Sequence record: MF327004
Direction: 5' to 3' (one strand)
Length of the DNA stretch: 64,000 nucleotides
From: Shigella phage Sf17
Made by a program: the position numbers and the translations under genes. Each line of letters starts with the position of its first letter. Position 1 is the first letter of the stretch. Positions 5,005-64,000 of the stretch are shown here, piece after piece. The notes under the pieces are model-generated. The model was not told the origin of the DNA. It did no database searches and worked only from the letters and a program-made list of their open reading frames with translations.

Positions 5005-5741
5005 TCTTTCACCATTGCGTTGTAGAATTGCCTTTGAATCTCTTCAGCAATCTGATAAGGTGTGAAACCAGCTTTTAACATCATTCTTACTGTGTACTCA
5101 ATGTCATTCTTATTAACCACATGGTCTGTGACACTGATTGCTTCTTTTAACTCTTCCACATTCTTTTTAGCATCTTCACAAGCGCTGGTCAACATGGAGT
5201 TAAATTTCTTTTGTGGTGTAGTCCAAGCATGACTATGTGGATTTGCATCACAGAAATACTTGAAGTAATCTCTGACGTTATCTACAACCAGAGTTTGATG
5301 ACCATCTTCTTTAGTTTGGTATCGAGACTCTTGCTCAGGTACATCTGCAAGTCTGTGTGTAGGAGCCTCTATAGTAACATCAATCGTTCTAACCTTTGGA
5401 GTTGCCTCTTTCTTCAGAGTCGGAGTTGCCTCAAAAGTTGCCTTTTCAGTTTCTTCTTCATCCCCTACCACAGTATCTTGTAAAGAAATACCCAGAATCT
5501 TTCTGAAGCTTCCTGTGAAGGTTAAGTTTTCAATATCAGTGGTCGAATAGACTTTACCAGCCCATAAGTGTGCTTCTGGACCAAGTGATGTTGCTGGATA
5601 AATCTTGAAATGTAATGTCTTCATAGGTCGGAAGTACACAACCCCGCTATCAGACACATACGTAACAAATGCCTTAGTTCTTTGGGCTGGTGAAGCCTTT
5701 ACATAAATGTAAATTGTGTCTGTCTCTTTAACTTTAACCAT
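5001..5741 (-). CDS. hypothetical protein (246 aa)
   Basis: ORF; GGAGAG ribosome-binding site upstream; minus-strand TTGACA promoter-like sequence at about 5775-5805. Confidence 0.5.
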   Translation of the reverse strand: MVKVKETDTIYIYVKASPAQRTKAFVTYVSDSGVVYFRPMKTLHFKIYPATSLGPEAHLWAGKVYSTTDIENLTFTGSFRKILGISLQDTVVGDEEETEKATFEATPTLKKEATPKVRTIDVTIEAPTHRLADVPEQESRYQTKEDGHQTLVVDNVRDYFKYFCDANPHSHAWTTPQKKFNSMLTSACEDAKKNVEELKEAISVTDHVVNKNDIEYTVRMMLKAGFTPYQIAEEIQRQFYNAMVKE

Positions 5742-5811
5742 TTTATCTCTCCAATAAAAAAGGGAACCACCTTTCGATAGCTCCCATCATACAAAATTCT
5801 AGATATTACTG

Positions 5812-6405
5812 TCAAGTATATTTTCTAGGCAGTAATTTACTTTTTCTGCTTCGAACATCTTCAAGGATAGCTATGAAGTCATCAGAAGCACCCTTCCAAG
5901 GGCTGAAGTTTGGGATATGTTGGCGAATAGCTTCAATAATCGTCTTCATACCTGTGTTCTTCATCCACCAATCTGAGCTTGAGGCAGTCATAACAAAGAA
6001 CTGCTCATCATCGGTTAAGATGACCTCTTTAGTGAATGGGGAGGTGTACGTGGTGATAACTGAACCACCATTCATGTAATATGTACGCTTGTGGACTTTA
6101 TCAAGCATATCATGTAGGTCACCAAACAGTTTCACAACCTCTTGGTGGTTAATGTCTTTCTCAAGGTCTAAACGGTACTTCAGAAGTGCTTCATCAACTT
6201 CTTTAGATGAGAACTTAAAGTACTGTACATCTTCAATGATACATGCAGAGATGTTGTTCACATCCATAGTCAATTTGACAACTTTTGCTGGTGAGTTAAT
6301 GTTTGGCTGGAACGCAGCAAGCACACCCTGAACATTACCGTAGTGTTGGACTAATGCAACTTGTGGAGAATCAACTCCACCCTTTTCTTTAATGTGTACA
6401 CTCAT
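5812..6405 (-). CDS. hypothetical protein (197 aa)
   Basis: ORF in minus-strand block. Confidence 0.5.
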   Translation of the reverse strand: MSVHIKEKGGVDSPQVALVQHYGNVQGVLAAFQPNINSPAKVVKLTMDVNNISACIIEDVQYFKFSSKEVDEALLKYRLDLEKDINHQEVVKLFGDLHDMLDKVHKRTYYMNGGSVITTYTSPFTKEVILTDDEQFFVMTASSSDWWMKNTGMKTIIEAIRQHIPNFSPWKGASDDFIAILEDVRSRKSKLLPRKYT

Positions 6406-6406
6406 A

Positions 6407-6757
6407 CTATAACTTCCTCACTAAATACTTTTTAAGTGGTGTCTTTGGTTTTTCAAAGACCTCAATAGAATCTATTTTGATGCCCTCACCACGCATACCT
6501 GTGGATTGGTAGATGTAGAACTCAAGCATCCCTATATTTTTAGCTGGCATATCATGCTTAACAAAGATGGTCACTGACTCTTCACTTTTAAAGATTACTG
6601 TACCATCTTTATACACAAGCTTATCAGGTTGTTTATAGTCAAGCATATCAAACATCAGAAATAGTCTTTGCTGACATTTGTCCAGCCTTGTTGACAGGGC
6701 TTCTTGTATATCTGCAAAATTCTTATAAACAACGATGTGGAGCTTAAGCATCTGCAT
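6407..6757 (-). CDS. hypothetical protein (start trimmed from 6844)
   Basis: ORF 6407-6844 overlaps upstream gene by 100 nt; internal ATG at 6757 removes most of the overlap. Confidence 0.4.
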   Translation of the reverse strand: MQMLKLHIVVYKNFADIQEALSTRLDKCQQRLFLMFDMLDYKQPDKLVYKDGTVIFKSEESVTIFVKHDMPAKNIGMLEFYIYQSTGMRGEGIKIDSIEVFEKPKTPLKKYLVRKL

Positions 6758-7037
6758 ATTCTCTGACGAAGAAGTAGTTGATTTTGTTATCAGATACCAG
6801 AAGGTCATAGCAAGTAATTTCGAACTTACTCTTTTCAGCATCATAGCTTGTGTATGGCTCGGAAACTTGCTTTGTTGACACTTTTGGGTTATTAGGGTTT
6901 AAAAGGCCACCATAAAGTTTCTTAATGGCCTTTGTCACCACACTCCAGATAACATCATCAGTGAGTTCTTCGTACAGGTCAAACTCAGCTTCATAGCTGA
7001 AGTCATTAATTGGAAAGATAACCTGTACTTTACTCAT
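6744..7037 (-). CDS. hypothetical protein (97 aa)
   Basis: ORF in minus-strand block. Confidence 0.45.
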   Translation of the reverse strand: MSKVQVIFPINDFSYEAEFDLYEELTDDVIWSVVTKAIKKLYGGLLNPNNPKVSTKQVSEPYTSYDAEKSKFEITCYDLLVSDNKINYFFVREYADA

Positions 7038-7038
7038 A

Positions 7039-7419
7039 TCAAACTACCTGTGTAACTTGCAACGCTTCTGTTACGGAGATATCACCGACTTTTTCTTCTT
7101 TGATGAAGGTGAAAGTTAGAAGGGTTGGTTCTGAAACCTCATCTTCCAAAGGTACACCATTCAGTTCATCAAAGATAGCCTGTGTAGTCCAATCTTCCTG
7201 ACCGTCTGGGTAGTGGTAAGCATATTTGTGAAAATTCAGGTCAAACCATCCAAAAATTGGACAACCATCTGCATCATCACCACGGTATGATAGTATGCTA
7301 CCTGACTCAAACTGCAATTTCAGTCTTCCATTGTCTTGGAAAATAATTGCTTTTGCAAAATCACCAGACTCATCTAAATCGTGACCGGATGTGTCAACCA
7401 ATACATCAATCTTATTCAT
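7039..7419 (-). CDS. hypothetical protein (start trimmed from 7518)
   Basis: ORF overlaps upstream gene by 107 nt; internal ATG at 7419. Confidence 0.4.
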   Translation of the reverse strand: MNKIDVLVDTSGHDLDESGDFAKAIIFQDNGRLKLQFESGSILSYRGDDADGCPIFGWFDLNFHKYAYHYPDGQEDWTTQAIFDELNGVPLEDEVSEPTLLTFTFIKEEKVGDISVTEALQVTQVV

Positions 7420-7822
7420 AATAACCTCTCTCAGCTTTCTCAATTTTATCCAGAAGTTTGATACACTCATTGTTATGGTATGTAGCCTCACTCTGGTGTA
7501 ACTTCTTCTTCTGCTCAAGTAGAAATTTATAGTAACCTGATAACTGCTCTCTTGTCAAGGGGTGTTCTGAAATAATATCAAGAGAACTTTCACCTAAAGG
7601 TGAGAACATACCATTGTCATCCACGTTGTACAGTTCACCAGCAAAGAAGCCTTTGTTAGCCATTGTGATAGGTGAGCGTTCAATGACCTCAACAACAAAC
7701 TTTGTGAACACCTTGTCACCCATAGTAATCAACTTGGTTCCTGCAATACGAACCTTCATACCACTTCTTGTGTACTTGAAAGTACCATTATCATTCGCCC
7801 AAAGCTTCATAGTTTTCTCCAT
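7412..7822 (-). CDS. hypothetical protein (136 aa)
   Basis: ORF immediately downstream of endolysin. Confidence 0.5.
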   Translation of the reverse strand: MEKTMKLWANDNGTFKYTRSGMKVRIAGTKLITMGDKVFTKFVVEVIERSPITMANKGFFAGELYNVDDNGMFSPLGESSLDIISEHPLTREQLSGYYKFLLEQKKKLHQSEATYHNNECIKLLDKIEKAERGYYE

Positions 7823-7824
7823 AG

Positions 7825-7851
7825 AAATAAAAAAGGCTCCCGAAGGAGCCT
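7825..7851 (-). terminator. rho-independent terminator (minus strand)
   Basis: Minus strand reads AGGCTCC-ttcg-GGAGCCT followed by TTTTTATTT, directly after the endolysin stop. Confidence 0.55.
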
Positions 7852-7860
7852 CTTAATCTA

Positions 7861-8331
7861 CTATTTTGGATAAACAGCGTCAAGGTAAATCTTGGCTTCC
7901 AAACTACGTCTATTTTGTAGACCCTTGGAAGTTACTTTTTGACCATTCACTGTAATCTTGTTCCACCACTGCATAGCTTCTGCACAACCAGCTTTGTTAC
8001 CAGCATTGTGACGCTTGATAAAAGTTGAATCCTGCATAGCACCGATGCCAATGTTGTAAGTCTCTACAACAAGTGCGTCAAATTCGTTCTGCGTAGTTGG
8101 AACCTTAATTGCTCTGTTTACTGCACCTACATAGTTCTCAACATCTGCAAGGAGATATTGTTCAGCTTGCTCGGCAGTAATCTTCATCCCCATCGTAACA
8201 GGTCTTCCGTTGATACGAATTGTACCATAACCAATTGTAGGGATTCCAGCAGAGTCTTTATAGGCTTCTAAACGAAGCCCTTCAAAGAACTTAATGGCTT
8301 CTAAGCCTTTACTTGAGAGTTGCATTATCAA
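7861..8331 (-). CDS. endolysin, T4-lysozyme-like (glycoside hydrolase family 24)
   Basis: N-terminal motif FEGLRLEAYKDSAGIPTIGYGT matches the Glu-Asp-Thr catalytic spacing of T4 lysozyme. Confidence 0.85.
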   Translation of the reverse strand: MIMQLSSKGLEAIKFFEGLRLEAYKDSAGIPTIGYGTIRINGRPVTMGMKITAEQAEQYLLADVENYVGAVNRAIKVPTTQNEFDALVVETYNIGIGAMQDSTFIKRHNAGNKAGCAEAMQWWNKITVNGQKVTSKGLQNRRSLEAKIYLDAVYPK

Positions 8332-58074: not shown

Positions 58075-58938
58075 ATGTCTAAAGTTGTTAAAATGAAAGC
58101 TCCGGTAGAGAAGTACAATGGTCAAGAACGTGAGACTCTGCGTTACCTGCTGAAAGATGTTTGGTTCTATTACCTGAACACTATTCCACGCCCTCAAAAG
58201 GGTAAATCTGTGGATAAGCATTTTCCGGGCAAAGATTGTAACTACAGCGTTTCAATTCTGGCAAAAGATGGTAACAAGCTCTTTAAAGAGTTCACCAAGT
58301 CTAAAAAGAGTCCTGAAGGTTGGGATAAAGTTACTACAGAGGCTGTTGATGCAGATGACTTCGAAGAGAAGTTTGGTTGTGAGCCTCCGTTTGAAGCTGA
58401 CACCTATCACATCCTGAAGGTTAGCCGTTCAGCAGCATATAAAGATGGTGCTGTGTGGTCAGCAAAACAGAGTTTCCCTGTAATGCTGGTTGAAGAAATC
58501 AACGGTAAGCGTGTTGCAGTTAAGCAGCCTATGAAGAAAATCAAGGCAGCAAAATCTGATAAGCACGATGATGATAAGACTTACGATGTAATTCATCCAG
58601 ATATTGCAGTTGGTAACGGTTCATTTGGTAGTGTGATTCTGGCGACTCACTTCTACACATTTGAAGGTAACGTTCTGACCAAGCCAATTCAGGAACAATT
58701 TATCATTGATACTCTGGTTCCTTACACTGGTGGTACTGGTGGTGCTACTGAGACTGAACTGGATGAAGATGAACTGGCAATGCTTGGTCTTGCAGGTGTT
58801 GAAGACAACGGTGAAATCACTGAAGAAGATGCAAAAGATTCTGGTGATGAAGGTAAAGGTGGTGATGACGACGATGACGACGACCTGCCAAACCCAGATG
58901 ATGACGACGAAGATGATTTCGAAACTGACGACGAGTAA
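58075..58938 (+). CDS. putative single-stranded DNA-binding protein with acidic C-terminal tail
   Basis: C-terminus GDDDDDDDLPNPDDDDEDDFETDDE resembles acidic tails of phage SSBs; located within the replication block. Confidence 0.5.
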   Translation: MSKVVKMKAPVEKYNGQERETLRYLLKDVWFYYLNTIPRPQKGKSVDKHFPGKDCNYSVSILAKDGNKLFKEFTKSKKSPEGWDKVTTEAVDADDFEEKFGCEPPFEADTYHILKVSRSAAYKDGAVWSAKQSFPVMLVEEINGKRVAVKQPMKKIKAAKSDKHDDDKTYDVIHPDIAVGNGSFGSVILATHFYTFEGNVLTKPIQEQFIIDTLVPYTGGTGGATETELDEDELAMLGLAGVEDNGEITEEDAKDSGDEGKGGDDDDDDDLPNPDDDDEDDFETDDE

Positions 58939-58973: not shown

Positions 58974-60041
58974 ATGGGGCTTTTTCGTATGGAGAGTACA
59001 ATGGAACAATACACCTTAACAAAGCTCCCAGAGAGCGTTACACACGTCTTTATTGACTCTGATAGCATTGCTTACAAAGGTGCTTGTGTAGTTGAAAAAG
59101 CAAAGTACAAGTATGTGAATAAAATCACTGCTGAAGAATCCGACGCTTTTGATAGTGCAAAACTGGCAGCACAATGGCTGTCTGACCAAAGAGTTTTAAC
59201 TGAAGAGTTAGGACTTGACTTTGATGAAGATGAATGGGAAAGACAGACTTGGAAGGAGGCTAAGAGTGAAGCTGAAGCAATTATGGCTACACAGCAAGTT
59301 CTTCAGGAGTGGTTGAAAGTCGTTGGTAAAGAACGCAAATGGATGGGTTACCTTACTGAGAAAGGTGTTCACAAACACAAGGATATCAAAGGTCTTGAAC
59401 ACCAATACCAAGGTAACAGAAAAGAAGCTGTAACACCTACACACCTAGTTGCTTGTCGTGAGTATCTTCTGTCACGACCAGAGTTTAAGCTCCTAAAGGG
59501 GGGCTTCGAAGCAGACTCTATCGTTATTGCAAAAGCTGAGAAGATGGGTAAAAAAGCTGCTCTGATGAGTATTGATAAAGACCTTCGTCAAGCTGAAGGA
59601 ACTTACTGTATTGATATGACTTACGAGAAAGCTCCATTAATTTTCATTGCAGATAATAACGTTGGTGAGATTTGGGATTGCCCTATCAAATCTAAACCGA
59701 AAGCTAAGAAGACAGTCGGAGTAGGTTTTAAATTCCTCTGCTATCAAGCTGTAGCAGGTGATAATGCAGATAACTACTTCGGTTTAAAAGGTGCTGGTAA
59801 GGTTGCAGTGATGAATGCACTGGAAGGTAAAACTACCTACAAAGAGTGCTTAGACGCAATCTATGAGCTTTATGCTAAGAAAGAGTCATACACCTATGAA
59901 TCATGGGATGGTCAGATTGTGACAAGAACTCCACTAGAATTAATGGAGCAACACTTCTGGATTGCTTATCAAGAACGAAATCCTAAAGATGATTTTACGT
60001 TTAAAAAATACAATTGGGAGCCAGTTATGAATGAAGATTAA
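58974..60041 (+). CDS. 5-prime to 3-prime exonuclease / flap endonuclease (RNase H-like)
   Basis: N-terminal acidic cluster VFIDSDSIAY and H3TH-like motif GDNADNYFGLKGAGKVAV; true start may be an internal Met near 59001. Confidence 0.6.
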   Translation: MGLFRMESTMEQYTLTKLPESVTHVFIDSDSIAYKGACVVEKAKYKYVNKITAEESDAFDSAKLAAQWLSDQRVLTEELGLDFDEDEWERQTWKEAKSEAEAIMATQQVLQEWLKVVGKERKWMGYLTEKGVHKHKDIKGLEHQYQGNRKEAVTPTHLVACREYLLSRPEFKLLKGGFEADSIVIAKAEKMGKKAALMSIDKDLRQAEGTYCIDMTYEKAPLIFIADNNVGEIWDCPIKSKPKAKKTVGVGFKFLCYQAVAGDNADNYFGLKGAGKVAVMNALEGKTTYKECLDAIYELYAKKESYTYESWDGQIVTRTPLELMEQHFWIAYQERNPKDDFTFKKYNWEPVMNED

Positions 60042-60531
60042 AGGATTTGGAAATTGCCCTGTTTATGGACATTGGGTTTCACTGTGCGGGGAAATTGACC
60101 CCGCTAACTATTTTGGTTTTGTCTATTTAGTATACTGTAAGAAAACTGGACAATATTATATTGGAAAGAAACAATTTAATAACGTCACTAAGAAAAAGGT
60201 TGCTGGAAAGACCAGACGTAAAGTCGTGACAAAAGAAAGTGATTGGATGACTTATCAAACATCTTCTGAATACATTAAGAAAGATATTGAATCTTTTGGT
60301 GAAAAAGAGTTTGACTTCTACATCATCCAGACTTACTATACGCGAGGTGGCTTAGTTTATGGCGAAGCTAACCTACAACATAAGTTTGACGTCATGACAA
60401 AAAGGATTGACTCTAAGCTTCGACTCTTCTACAATGCAAACATTGCAGCAATCAAGTTTCTTACAAAAGAGACTTATGATGAAGCTGAGAAGAGAATCAC
60501 TAAAATCATGAAACTTAATGAGAGAGTTTAA
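60031..60531 (+). CDS. GIY-YIG-type nuclease domain protein
   Basis: FGFVYLVYCKKTGQYYIGKK fits GIY-(10-11 aa)-YIG spacing, followed by conserved Arg/Glu/Asn positions. Confidence 0.45.
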   Translation: MKIKGFGNCPVYGHWVSLCGEIDPANYFGFVYLVYCKKTGQYYIGKKQFNNVTKKKVAGKTRRKVVTKESDWMTYQTSSEYIKKDIESFGEKEFDFYIIQTYYTRGGLVYGEANLQHKFDVMTKRIDSKLRLFYNANIAAIKFLTKETYDEAEKRITKIMKLNERV

Positions 60532-60532
60532 A

Positions 60533-60748
60533 ATGTTTAATAAAATCAAAAATGACCATGTTTCTAAAATCCAGAGTGGTGTAGCAGCACTGAAGGAAAC
60601 TATCAGTAAAGCTAAGTCAGCTACAGAAGCTGAGATGGATGCTCTGGAATCACAAATTCAACATCTGTTAAGCAAACGTGTTGAACTCAAAGAACGAATG
60701 GACTATATTGAGTCTCAACAAAAGTTGTTTGAAGATAAGGAGGCTTAA
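60533..60748 (+). CDS. hypothetical coiled-coil protein (start trimmed from 60518)
   Basis: ATG at 60533 follows upstream stop. Confidence 0.4.
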   Translation: MFNKIKNDHVSKIQSGVAALKETISKAKSATEAEMDALESQIQHLLSKRVELKERMDYIESQQKLFEDKEA

Positions 60749-61503
60749 TGTTTAATTCCAGAGAATCCGTAAGAAATTGGAATCTACGTTGTGGCAATAA
60801 TCCAAAAGAACCATACAGCACAGAGTATTGGGAATCACTGAAAAGCCAATCTCTGTGTATGCTTGAAGAAGCTAGAGAGTTAGTCGCAGCAGTAGAAGCC
60901 AAAGACCCTGTTGAGACCCTTGATGCTCAAGCTGATTTGCAGTATGTACTTGATGGTTTAATTTTCCTGACACAACATGACCATGATGGTGCTATCAAGG
61001 CTGTTTGTGAAAACAACAACCTCAAATACACAGACGACTATCAAGAAGCTCTACAGCGAATGTTTGATATTGAGAAACGTACTGGTGATGAATGTTACCT
61101 GCGTCAATCAATCATCGAAGGTAAAGAGTGGTTTGCGATTATTCGCAAGTCTGATGGTAAGATTATGAAACAGTCTAATCTTCCAAAAGTTCAACTTGAA
61201 AGTTTTATTGCAGAAGTTGACGCAAAAGAATTATTTGTGGTAACATCTGACACATGCGTTATCTGCCAAGGACTGATTGGAAGTCTTGGTAGTCTTGGCA
61301 TTAAAAACTTTTCTAAAGTTGAACCAATCTCTTCAAAAGCAGATAAAGATTTCTGCCGTGAGAATGGATTATGGCTTGCGGATATTGTGTACTATGATGG
61401 TGAGAAGTTCCATGTAACCTCATATCCGAAATTGAATTATGATGCAATCAACCTCAAGCAGTGGTTGAAAGGAGTCGGTTATAATGGATTCACAGAACAT
61501 TAA
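60748..61503 (+). CDS. putative MazG-like NTP pyrophosphohydrolase domain fused to C-terminal CxxC redoxin-like domain
   Basis: N-terminal LEEARELVAAVEAKDPVETLDAQADLQYVLDGLIFL resembles MazG helices; C-terminal FVVTSDTCVICQGL has CxxC; just upstream of nrdA. Confidence 0.4.
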   Translation: MFNSRESVRNWNLRCGNNPKEPYSTEYWESLKSQSLCMLEEARELVAAVEAKDPVETLDAQADLQYVLDGLIFLTQHDHDGAIKAVCENNNLKYTDDYQEALQRMFDIEKRTGDECYLRQSIIEGKEWFAIIRKSDGKIMKQSNLPKVQLESFIAEVDAKELFVVTSDTCVICQGLIGSLGSLGIKNFSKVEPISSKADKDFCRENGLWLADIVYYDGEKFHVTSYPKLNYDAINLKQWLKGVGYNGFTEH

Positions 61504-61810
61504 TAAAGGTGAAGAAGTGGTGGCAAAAAGCCACTTCTCCAACTACAACCTCTCTATGACAGTGTTTATGAATGATTCACTGTTAGACAAGTACGGAGAG
61601 AAGCCAGAAACGATTCTGGATAATGAACAAGTATTAGCAGCAGTGTTGTATAAGTATGGCTTAAATATTGATAAACCGTACTCTTACGAGATTTGCCAGC
61701 ACAGAAATACTTTTGGTAAAGTTGTTGTAGCCCCCCTGTTCATGGGTGTAGAGCGCACAGATGACCAGTGGATTTACTTGAAACGAAACTTGGATAGATA
61801 TCATGTCTAA
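61484..61810 (+). CDS. hypothetical protein (108 aa)
   Basis: ORF; start may be an internal Met to avoid overlap. Confidence 0.4.
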   Translation: MDSQNINKGEEVVAKSHFSNYNLSMTVFMNDSLLDKYGEKPETILDNEQVLAAVLYKYGLNIDKPYSYEICQHRNTFGKVVVAPLFMGVERTDDQWIYLKRNLDRYHV

Positions 61811-62138
61811 AATTAAGAAGTTAACTAAAGAAGAAATCAAAGCTGGTGAAGAACTAGGCAATGATAAGTTTGGTGAGACATTACATCATGGTGACTTTGT
61901 AATGTACACTGAAGATTGCAAAGGTCGCAGCGATATCAAATTTGGACGAGTTGTCTGCAAAGTACGTGGTAACTTTTCAATTGCAAGACTTGAAGAAGAT
62001 ATTAGTGAGAAACTTGACATGGCATTCGATGAAGGTAAACGTTACTGGTACATGAATACAATGTCTAAAGGTTCACTAACAAAAGTGTCACAGAAGTTCA
62101 TTGAACTCTGGGAAAGTAAAAAGATTTTTAGCATTTAA
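61803..62138 (+). CDS. hypothetical protein (111 aa)
   Basis: ORF followed by strong terminator. Confidence 0.45.
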   Translation: MSKIKKLTKEEIKAGEELGNDKFGETLHHGDFVMYTEDCKGRSDIKFGRVVCKVRGNFSIARLEEDISEKLDMAFDEGKRYWYMNTMSKGSLTKVSQKFIELWESKKIFSI

Positions 62139-62189: not shown

Positions 62190-64000
62190 ATGATTACTAC
62201 TATTCGCAAATCAGACGGTACAATCGTACCATTCGAACCAGAACGTTTAAATAAGTGGGCTTCATGGGCTGACAAGAGAGGAATTATCTGGTCAGAAGTT
62301 GTAATGGAAGCTATGAAGCGTGTCTATGAAGGTTGCACAACAAAAGAAATGCACCAAGCTATGATTGACGTTTGTATTGATAAGCAAACTCAAGAGTACT
62401 CTGATATGGCTGGGAGACTACTTCTTGGCATTATCTACAAAGAAGCTTTTGGTGGATTTACAAAGGTTCCTCAATTACTTCCATTTGTGATGAAGATGGA
62501 GCAGATGGGGCTTTGGGAGCATATGGATTACACACCTGAAGAGATTGACTATTTACAAGGTCACATTGTACATTCAAAAGATATCTCTTATGGGTATGCA
62601 GTACTGAAGCAGTTCCGTGATAAGTATGGAATCCGTGACATTAAAAGTGGTAAGCTGTTTGAGTCTCCACAGTTTATGTTCATGGGTATGGCTATGAAAT
62701 CCTTTGAAAGACAGCCTAAACAGCGCCGTTTAGATGATGTTATTAAGCTCTACACATATCTATCTGACCTGAAGATTAATGCCCCTACACCGTATCTGAA
62801 TGGTCTGAGAGCTACAAAATCTGGCTATGCTTCATGCTGCCTAATTAAAGCAAACGATACTGCTGAATCTCTTGGCATTGCTACAAAAGTAGCTTATGAC
62901 ATGACCACTAAGCAAGCAGGTATTGGTATGCTGATGGAGACCAGAACAATTGGTGATGGAATCCGACAAAATACTATTGAGCATATGGGAAAACTCCCTT
63001 ATTATAAGCTTGTACGTGCTGCTGTAGAAGCTAATAAGCAGAAGAGTCGTGGTGGTTCAGCTAATAACTTCTTCACTGCATTAGACCCACAGATTGAGGA
63101 TTTGCTACGCTTGAAGCACCCTACAACGGTTCCTGCAAAGCGTATTAATGAAATGGATTACTCATTTGGTGCAAATGATTACTTCTGGCAATGTGTACAG
63201 TACGATACAGATTGGTTGCTATTCTCTTACAAAGACGCACCAAGACTGTATGATATGTTCTACACAGCAAGTGCTGATGAATTTGCTATGGCAGTAGGTC
63301 ACGCAGTTCATACAGGTGTTAAACATAAACGTGTAAAGGCTCGTGAGGTTGCCAAGTTGTTTATTCAGCAACGTTATGCTACAGGACGTGTTTACCCGTT
63401 CTTTACTAACAACGCAAACTATCATACACCTTTCAAAGAGCCTTTGAAAATGTCAAACCTGTGTATGGAGATTGTCTTACCAGTTCATGGTTTTGAGGAT
63501 GAAAGAGACCTGTATAGCTACACAGCCAAGAAAGAAGATGGTGAAGTTGCTCTTTGCTTCCTAGCTAGTTTGGTTGCAGGGAGAATCACAGAAGATGAAT
63601 ACGCTGACGTTGCTTATTATGCTCTTGCAATGGTTGACTCCGTTATTGACCTTATGGATTATCCGTATCCGTCAATGCGTAACCATGTTCAGAAGCGTCG
63701 TTCTGTTGGTATTGGCCTTACTAATGTGGCTCATTACCTTGCGAAGAACTATGTGAACTACTCATCAAGGGCTGGTAAAACTAAACTTCATGAGTTGGCT
63801 GAGATGCACTCTTACTTCTTGCATGAAGCATCTTTAAGACTCGCAAAAGAGCGTGGTGTACCAGAGTACATGCAGTTTACTAAGTACCCTGACGGTTGGG
63901 TTCCACCAAAGACTGCTAACAAGAAAATTGATGAAAAGCACGATGCAAAACTTCGTTATGATTGGGATGACCTGTCACATCGAATCAAAGAAAATGGAGG
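62190..64000 (+). CDS. nrdA: ribonucleotide reductase class I large subunit (partial, runs off window end)
   Basis: N-terminal ATP-cone-like IRKSDGTIVPFEPERL, catalytic motif SNLCMEIVLP, frame open from ATG 62190 to 64000. Confidence 0.9.
   Translation, partial: MITTIRKSDGTIVPFEPERLNKWASWADKRGIIWSEVVMEAMKRVYEGCTTKEMHQAMIDVCIDKQTQEYSDMAGRLLLGIIYKEAFGGFTKVPQLLPFVMKMEQMGLWEHMDYTPEEIDYLQGHIVHSKDISYGYAVLKQFRDKYGIRDIKSGKLFESPQFMFMGMAMKSFERQPKQRRLDDVIKLYTYLSDLKINAPTPYLNGLRATKSGYASCCLIKANDTAESLGIATKVAYDMTTKQAGIGMLMETRTIGDGIRQNTIEHMGKLPYYKLVRAAVEANKQKSRGGSANNFFTALDPQIEDLLRLKHPTTVPAKRINEMDYSFGANDYFWQCVQYDTDWLLFSYKDAPRLYDMFYTASADEFAMAVGHAVHTGVKHKRVKAREVAKLFIQQRYATGRVYPFFTNNANYHTPFKEPLKMSNLCMEIVLPVHGFEDERDLYSYTAKKEDGEVALCFLASLVAGRITEDEYADVAYYALAMVDSVIDLMDYPYPSMRNHVQKRRSVGIGLTNVAHYLAKNYVNYSSRAGKTKLHELAEMHSYFLHEASLRLAKERGVPEYMQFTKYPDGWVPPKTANKKIDEKHDAKLRYDWDDLSHRIKENG

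Follow-up and report, generated by a model that had tools for sequence, protein, structure and literature searches.

A conserved gene upstream of nrdA in Shigella phage Sf17 that combines a predicted DR2231-like pyrophosphohydrolase with a thioredoxin-fold CxxC domain

The gene and its two domains

In a 64,000-nucleotide stretch of the genome of Shigella phage Sf17 (sequence record MF327004; this whole stretch is referred to as the window, and positions are counted from its first letter), an open reading frame (ORF) on the plus strand at 60748..61503 runs from ATG to TAA and encodes 251 amino acids plus the stop codon. The gene corresponds to gp91 of phage Sf13 and to ORF109 of phage FelixO1. 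It is labelled 'MazG-like pyrophosphatase' in RefSeq and named 'phosphoribosyl-ATP pyrophosphohydrolase' in many GenBank records. A preliminary description of the DNA had proposed here a MazG-like pyrophosphohydrolase fused to a redoxin-like domain; its coordinates and strand are exact, and the frame is conserved in phage records. Very probably, the product is one polypeptide of two independently folding and independently conserved domains, a DR2231/HisE-like pyrophosphohydrolase followed by a thioredoxin (Trx)-fold domain with a CxxC motif.

Nucleotide identity of the region reaches 100% with Shigella phage Sf19 and Escherichia phage 3HA14. With Shigella phage Sf13, which is classed as a Mooglevirus in the subfamily Ounavirinae (Felix O1-like myoviruses), it is 99.9%. 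A Shine-Dalgarno sequence, AAGGAGG (60737..60743, plus strand), could be read from the sequence 4 nucleotides 5' of the ATG. The ATG overlaps the stop codon of the preceding ORF (TAATG), and the 3' end of the gene overlaps the start of the next ORF by 20 nucleotides. Protein-level searches (tblastn) located the gene in 302 phage records, 300 of which cover at least 80% of its length, and on this ground we rejected the idea that some relatives encode the two halves in separate genes. All 30 copies extracted, from the window and 29 related loci, are 251 amino acids long, stop-free and carry the CVIC motif. In Nei-Gojobori comparisons with copies from Mooglevirus and Felixounavirus, the ratio of non-synonymous to synonymous substitution rates (dN/dS) lies at 0.05-0.10 over codons 1-157 and at 0.10-0.27 over codons 158-251. 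Thus, both halves are under purifying selection, and the values for the second half led us to reject the view of the C-terminal domain as a decaying remnant. The ORF is a real, conserved gene and not a chance reading frame.

The N-terminal module (residues 1-157; 60748..61218, plus strand) is assigned by Pfam, profile comparisons and stand-alone relatives to the DR2231/HisE-like branch of the all-alpha nucleoside triphosphate (NTP) pyrophosphohydrolases. The Pfam family PRA-PH, a member of the MazG clan, matches residues 17-85 (30 bits against a gathering threshold of 21.3). PHROG 2144, 'MazG-like pyrophosphatase', matches the protein over its full length (E = 7.5e-96), which means that the family in phages had been catalogued before as a whole. 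The model for MazG proper, PF03819 (E. coli MazG type), gave no match at E <= 10 in a search that reported only PRA-PH and two chance matches. The MazG-like N-terminus of the preliminary description is therefore valid at the level of the superfamily, as indicated by PRA-PH, PHROG 2144 and the relationship to DR2231, but the module is not MazG proper. The proposed N-terminal helices are also present, as a helical core recognized by Pfam and by the AlphaFold2 (AF2) model (helices 25-50, 54-75, 79-93 and 98-112, with a predicted local distance difference test score, pLDDT, of 84-97), but the module is longer, extending to about residue 157 and including a helix-hairpin insertion. This insertion (residues 95-133; 61030..61146, plus strand) consists of helix 98-112 and a beta-hairpin at 116-133, and is missing from minimal relatives of 115-125 amino acids.

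An alignment of 13 N-module sequences, down to 28% identity and including stand-alone viral relatives (alignment A4), shows E40, E41, E44, D59, D63, V67, N90, K93, K138 and K141 to be invariant and E56 and D136 to be at least 90% conserved. The acidic residues lie on two predicted metal-binding helices, E40-E41-x-x-E44 and E56-x-x-D59-x-x-x-D63 (60865..60936, plus strand). EExxE followed by ExxD is an established motif type of the MazG/HisE superfamily, and the putative ligands of the phage protein, a complete set, fit this metal-ligand pattern of the all-alpha NTP pyrophosphohydrolases. The pyrophosphatase module closes with the motif S-D-G-K-I-M-K (residues 135-141; 61150..61170, plus strand), which holds the conserved D136, K138 and K141 and is common to the window protein and DR2231 of Deinococcus radiodurans (RRADGKQLKP). 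When the A4 profile was searched against the PDB, DR2231 was the best solved relative (E = 1.1e-5), with two aligned stretches, including RRADGKQLKPEGW; the second stretch is the C-terminal DGKxxKP motif. HisE 1yvw ranked next (E = 0.027), with other MazG-related structures behind it. DR2231 is a MazG-like NTP pyrophosphohydrolase that cleaves deoxyuridine triphosphate (dUTP) (PMC5122711), and its 'exclusive activity on dUTP' appears in the title of the paper by Mota et al. 2016 that PMC10014863 lists.

For the C-terminal domain (residues 158-251; 61219..61500, plus strand), the AF2 model and profile matches predict a thioredoxin fold of the glutaredoxin (Grx)/NrdH type. Mean pLDDT is 82.8 overall, with block means of 82-94 over residues 161-250. 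The predicted elements (b1 160-165, a1 171-182, b2 189-191, a2 197-206, b3 212-217, b4 221-225 and a3 233-242) follow the minimal Grx-type order b1-a1-b2-a2-b3-b4-a3, a four-stranded mixed sheet with three flanking helices. A profile of 12 C-domains searched against the PDB ranked NrdH 1r7h first (E = 0.019), followed by Grx3 and NrdH 4fiw/4hs1/4f2i, with the CxxC aligned, and comparison of the C-domain family with an alignment of phage Grx and NrdH-like sequences by hhalign gave 94% probability over b1-a1-b2 (41 columns). The Pfam Glutaredoxin model (PF00462, gathering threshold 22.9) matched the C-domain of family member P0019 with 24.7 bits and an Erwinia phage copy with 20.9 bits, both over b1-a1-b2 only; four of the ten family members had a weak match to Glrx-like. 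PHROG scans of the C-domains gave a strong match only to PHROG 2144 and a weak one to PHROG 22, 'thioredoxin domain'. The C-terminal part of the window protein alone had no match in Pfam and NCBIfam, and a single-sequence phmmer search of the full protein against the PDB returned chance matches only (TRAPPC3 and AbpA); both results are uninformative, since the family profile and the structure find Trx, Grx and NrdH. Recent duplication of the phage's own Grx was considered as a source of the domain and rejected (12% identity over 41 aligned columns).

The CxxC motif, C170-V-I-C173 (61255..61266, plus strand), is located at the N-terminus of a1: in the AF2 model, C170 immediately precedes helix 171-182 and C173 lies in its first turn. 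The two cysteines are invariant in the family, which includes the variants CVIC, CIIC, CAIC, CTLC, CTQC, CRMC, CEIC, CFIC and CSLC. Only seven columns are invariant among ten C-domain members aligned down to 28% identity (alignment A5): C170, C173, G184, A198, D199, W239 and L240. A third cysteine occurs in nine of the ten, at a position that shifts: it is C203 in seven members and occupies the cis-proline position in Erwinia phages, and P0022 has neither. The cis-proline position of Trx, Grx and NrdH, at the N-terminus of b3, corresponds to D212 (61381..61383, plus strand), as the prolines of NrdH 'APVV' and Grx3 'VPQVF' align to this column in hidden Markov model alignments. The window CVIC resembles the CVQC of NrdH, which provides the top profile matches. 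The placement of CVIC in a thioredoxin-like context, as first proposed, is thus supported by the AF2 fold with the CxxC at the start of a1, by NrdH and Grx as top PDB profile matches and by the hhalign result. The orthologues of Erwinia phages (Kolesnikvirus; L046, 4977-5723, and L048, 989-1735) lack C203 and have a cysteine at the cis-proline position (...IGCVAFFDG), which would put the third thiol beside the CxxC.

Distant relatives identified in a scan of viral contigs match residues 1-156 only and are encoded by ORFs of 115-180 amino acids. These stand-alone N-module relatives end at about residue 155, just past (R)-x-DGK-[IV]-[ML]-KP...F[IV]. Thus, we infer that the C-domain is an addition and that the gene is a true fusion. 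Among 1.84 billion representative proteins searched with the C-domain profile, eight matched with E <= 1e-3. Six of these are 244-251 amino acids long, match at residues ~156-250 and have the same two-domain architecture, and one is a 93-amino acid stand-alone CVQC protein (E = 7.8e-4) that is a bona fide Pfam Glutaredoxin/NrdH-like protein. P0025 (370 amino acids) was rejected as spurious in this search, being a tandem-repeat protein that matches a short FC..ADIVVYN string. The most divergent fusion, P0024, is encoded on an 87-kb metagenomic contig with Felix O1 gene order. The fusion is fixed in Ounavirinae and Ounavirinae-like phages of about 85-90 kb, where it is invariably part of the array of replication and nucleotide-metabolism genes, and a redoxin-like domain is fused to a pyrophosphatase only in the Ounavirinae lineage. 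The profile searches suggest that the C-domain is essentially private to the fusion in Ounavirinae-like phages, with NrdH-type redoxins as the nearest outside relatives. The expectation that a fusion of MazG-like and redoxin-like domains would be unusual was well founded, given where the stand-alone relatives end and the six fusion-type matches among 1.84 billion proteins; profile searches and structure prediction revealed two domains and not the single unrelated fold that had been named as the contrary outcome.

Structural neighbours in BFVD are labelled 'NTP pyrophosphohydrolase, DR2231-like'. The BFVD neighbours A0A0U2KZ74 (Pseudomonas phage SM1, 248 amino acids) and A0A7H0XA75 (272 amino acids) align structurally over nearly the full length (template modelling score ~0.44, 16-17% identity), and may be independent two-domain pyrophosphatase fusions.

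Genomic neighbourhood

The fusion gene is part of a co-directional array that encodes a deoxynucleoside monophosphate (dNMP) kinase, a primase/helicase, a hypothetical protein, an exonuclease, a GIY-YIG endonuclease and a small coiled-coil ORF, followed by the fusion gene, two small ORFs and nrdA. The latter, which encodes the large subunit of class I ribonucleotide reductase (RNR), begins at 62190 on the plus strand and is partial, as it exceeds the window (62190..64000; Pfam ATP-cone, Ribonuc_red_lgN and Ribonuc_red_lgC, E = 1.4e-66). The fusion gene is therefore upstream of nrdA on the same strand, as the preliminary description had it, but not immediately so: the two small conserved ORFs, at 61484-61810 (108 amino acids) and 61803-62138 (111 amino acids), both on the plus strand, lie between them. 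Neither small ORF has a Pfam match, and both are syntenic in Sf13 (Mooglevirus), FelixO1 (Felixounavirus), an Erwinia phage (Kolesnikvirus) and a metagenomic relative. A terminator scan found no terminator-like site between the fusion gene and nrdA, and a promoter scan gave the same result as shuffled sequence.

Synteny with nrdA/nrdB extends to Sf13, FelixO1, the Erwinia phage, LPML1 and the 87-kb metagenomic contig. In Sf13 and FelixO1, nrdA is followed in the annotation by nrdB, a gene for a separate canonical 80-amino acid glutaredoxin, and nrdD. The Sf13 genome annotation includes ThyA, DHFR, dNMP kinase, NrdAB, NrdDG and Grx; it lists no dUTPase and no dCMP deaminase. The record OK283618.1, 'Listeria phage LPML1' (L047), belongs to the Ounavirinae and encodes a 40%-identical orthologue in the gene order of enterobacterial Felix O1-like phages, with class Ia nrdA/nrdB. 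A Listeria host is unusual for a Felix O1-like phage, so the host label may deserve checking.

Stand-alone relatives of the N-terminal module occur in unrelated viral contigs in comparable company. In one contig (L041, 3250-8256) the order is ThyX, pyrophosphatase, RNR large subunit and, further on, thioredoxin and RNR small subunit. In three others (L033-L035, about 5300-8290) the stand-alone relatives are ~2.6 kb upstream of a gene for an 81-amino acid Grx-like protein, which is followed by nrdB. L043 is listed with these four as a neighbourhood of a stand-alone DR2231-like pyrophosphatase. Pyrophosphatase, redoxin, RNR and thymidylate synthase thus occur together repeatedly, also in unrelated viral contigs, which supports a role of stand-alone DR2231-like pyrophosphatases in the metabolism of deoxyuridine monophosphate (dUMP) and deoxynucleoside triphosphates (dNTPs).

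Two other genes of the array deserve comment. The product of 60031-60531 (plus strand), just upstream, is labelled 'NAD synthetase' by RefSeq in Sf13, FelixO1 and the Erwinia phage; it is actually a SegE-type GIY-YIG endonuclease (PF19835, E = 1.1e-27; GFVYLVY...YYIGKK), and the name looks like a propagated mis-annotation. Between the genes for the primase/helicase and the PIN-like exonuclease, 58075-58938 (plus strand) encodes a conserved hypothetical protein of 287 amino acids with an extremely acidic tail (...GGDDDDDDDLPNPDDDDEDDFETDDE); its position and tail are reminiscent of phage single-stranded DNA-binding or replication accessory proteins.

Predicted function and alternative explanations

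The explanation that we consider best overall, with a probability of about one half, combines the two-domain architecture with a predicted dNTP pyrophosphatase and a predicted dithiol module. The N-terminal module would convert dNTPs to dNMPs and pyrophosphate. The leading candidate substrate is dUTP, because of the relationship to DR2231, the lack of an annotated dUTPase and the association with ThyA/ThyX; an enzyme that acts on dUTP would provide thymidylate synthase with dUMP and prevent uracil from entering DNA. The C-domain would cycle between dithiol and disulfide and, by reducing or docking on the phage RNR, may tether the pyrophosphatase to the dNTP-synthesizing machinery. Alternatively, it may gate the pyrophosphatase by thiol redox state. 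We regard this redox-active, RNR-linked working model, which draws on sequence relationships, as tentative, with odds slightly worse than even.

Several observations weigh against this interpretation. The predicted template modelling score of the AF2 model is 0.50, so that the model does not predict how the two domains are oriented to each other; Foldseek E-values of the model against the PDB are only ~1e-2, and the window copy has no Pfam redoxin match of its own. The similarity to DR2231 is remote (E = 1e-5, and a profile is needed), and substrate specificity in the pyrophosphohydrolase superfamily is not predictable from sequence. A canonical glutaredoxin is encoded directly after nrdB in the phage, so the C-domain need not serve as RNR reductant. 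Glutathione binding by glutaredoxins involves a CPYC-type site, TVP and GG-x-dD, and none of these motifs was seen on inspection of alignment A5. NrdH-redoxins are marked by a C-V/M-Q-C site and a conserved WSGFRP(D/E) segment, and a WSGFRP-like segment is not visible in the window protein or in alignment A5. In none of the ten aligned members is there a cis-proline before b3; the position holds D, C, S or Q, never P. Nearly all redox-active Trx-fold proteins have this proline, the importance of which has been documented (PMC2757866, PMC2665069). Among Trx-fold groups it is reportedly better conserved than the CxxC, and a part in substrate binding has been proposed for it (PMC2757866). Also, the MazG of a cyanophage prefers dGTP and dCTP (PMC6850273). 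Because the cis-proline, the glutathione-binding motifs and the WSGFRP segment are all missing, we place the C-domain in neither the Grx nor the NrdH family; it forms a new subtype of Trx-fold domain, derived from Grx/NrdH.

The residues at the cis-proline position bear directly on an alternative that we consider unlikely, in which the C-domain is a metal or iron-sulfur-binding module and not a disulfide reductase. Without the cis-proline, the CxxC thiolates would be free to ligate Zn or [2Fe-2S], and as all-alpha NTP pyrophosphohydrolases are typically oligomeric, a cluster could bridge two subunits, with activity or oligomerization responding to iron or oxidative status. The consistent replacement of proline in all members fits this idea, as do the invariance of the CxxC in a domain that otherwise diverges to 28% identity and the third cysteine of nine of the ten aligned members, though its position shifts. 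However, only two cysteines are invariant, so a full set of metal ligands would need dimerization or a small-molecule thiol, and NrdH and Grx, which are closest in sequence, act as ordinary dithiol reductants. The missing cis-proline and Grx/NrdH accessory motifs may instead mark a redox-inactive Trx-fold scaffold, an interaction or stabilizing domain in which the CxxC is structural, so that the protein is a pyrophosphatase with an adaptor. The phage's own canonical Grx is in keeping with this, and the restriction of the C-domain to this one context among 1.84 billion representatives fits a lineage-specific adaptor. We judge the scaffold to be rather improbable, however, as both cysteines are among the seven invariant columns and sit exactly at the catalytic helix-dipole position, and Trx-fold scaffolds that degenerate usually lose their cysteines early. 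A more speculative idea, which we hold to be about as improbable, is that the C-domain represents an unrecognized, phage-private class of CxxC Trx folds that, after loss of the cis-proline, ligates a metal or [2Fe-2S], possibly across a pyrophosphatase dimer, or forms a covalent tether to RNR. If so, the redox or iron status of the cell would act as a direct switch on dNTP-pool sanitation in Felix O1-like phages.

For the N-terminal module, it is conceivable but doubtful that the enzyme is not a dUTPase but a pyrophosphatase acting on dNTPs in general or with a G/C bias, which reshapes the pool derived from host DNA in the way suggested for cyanophage MazG, with the redoxin acting as in the preferred, RNR-linked model. 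The G+C content of the window is 39.4%, below the roughly 51% of Shigella and E. coli. The dGTP and dCTP preference of the MazG of cyanophage S-PM2 was linked by its authors to the host GC gap (PMC6850273), and some MazG-like enzymes are promiscuous (PMC5122711). The cyanophage enzyme, however, belongs to the MazG-proper branch, whereas the best solved relative here is DR2231, and both the ThyX genes that adjoin relatives and the lack of an annotated dUTPase in the phage point to dUMP supply. It is very improbable that the database label is literally right and that the protein is HisE, the phosphoribosyl-ATP pyrophosphohydrolase of histidine biosynthesis. PRA-PH is the only Pfam family matched, and the name stands in many GenBank records; yet DR2231 (E = 1e-5) ranked well above HisE 1yvw (E = 0.027), the phage annotation contains no further gene of the histidine pathway, and it is genes for RNR and thymidylate synthase that consistently lie nearby. 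For this gene, a label such as 'phosphoribosyl-ATP pyrophosphohydrolase' probably misleads.

Databases already contain the gene under its MazG-like label, and both folds are familiar. Literature searches on a MazG-redoxin fusion or on this gene in Felix O1/Ounavirinae returned only a table entry for phage Sf14, 'MazG-like pyrophosphatase', of the middle class. In the literature searched, we found no description of the C-terminal 95 residues as redoxin-like, of the conserved architecture or of the consistent absence of the cis-proline. Felix O1 and related phages, which infect Salmonella, E. coli, Shigella and Erwinia, are classics of diagnostics and therapy; the whole subfamily has conserved the gene, of which databases label the first half only. 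The joining of a redoxin-like domain to a predicted dNTP pyrophosphatase, in a gene beside RNR, suggests that nucleotide reduction, sanitation of the pool or provision of dUMP, and thiol or metal status are linked, either physically or through regulation. In addition, the C-domain is a natural CxxC thioredoxin fold that lacks the cis-proline, and thus bears on the proposed metal-excluding role of that residue.

Comparison with known systems

The N-terminal module most resembles DR2231 (PDB 2yeu, 2yf3, 5i0m and others), with which it has in common a helical core with acidic metal ligands, a V-x-x-x-N-x-x-K helix and a C-terminal R-x-DGK-x-x-KP. Unlike the phage protein, DR2231 is a stand-alone enzyme (deposited chains of 138-154 amino acids) that lacks the 39-residue insertion (residues 95-133) and the C-terminal Trx-fold domain. 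The second acidic motif is also offset by one residue (D59xxxD63 in the phage, ExxD in DR2231). The dUTP specificity is that of DR2231, and is a candidate specificity for the phage protein. Cyanophage S-PM2 MazG (PMC6850273) and other phage 'MazG-like' auxiliary genes likewise encode all-alpha NTP pyrophosphohydrolases that are thought to tune the dNTP pool. The cyanophage enzyme differs in being MazG proper, a single domain with a measured dGTP/dCTP preference and no redoxin domain.

The C-domain differs from NrdH-redoxins and small glutaredoxins (1r7h, 4fiw, 1h75; PF00462) in that it has no cis-proline before b3, no WSGFRP and no glutathione-binding residues, is never found free-standing and, in the window copy, falls below Pfam detection. 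The Grx-ATP-cone-NrdB protein of Facklamia ignava (PMC6187632) offers a parallel for the fusion, as a Grx-type domain is covalently joined to an enzyme of dNTP synthesis and acts in cis as the RNR reductant. That protein pairs a canonical Grx with the RNR small subunit, whereas the phage protein joins an atypical redoxin to a pyrophosphatase, an enzyme that works downstream of RNR. The same functional logic is evident in phage T4, where dNTP pyrophosphatase, RNR and redoxin are brought together: the T4 dNTP-synthetase complex includes the gp56 dCTPase/dUTPase and the NrdC thioredoxin. The likeness drawn is one of logic; the T4 proteins are separate polypeptides held by non-covalent contacts, whereas in the phage protein described here the two roles would share one chain.

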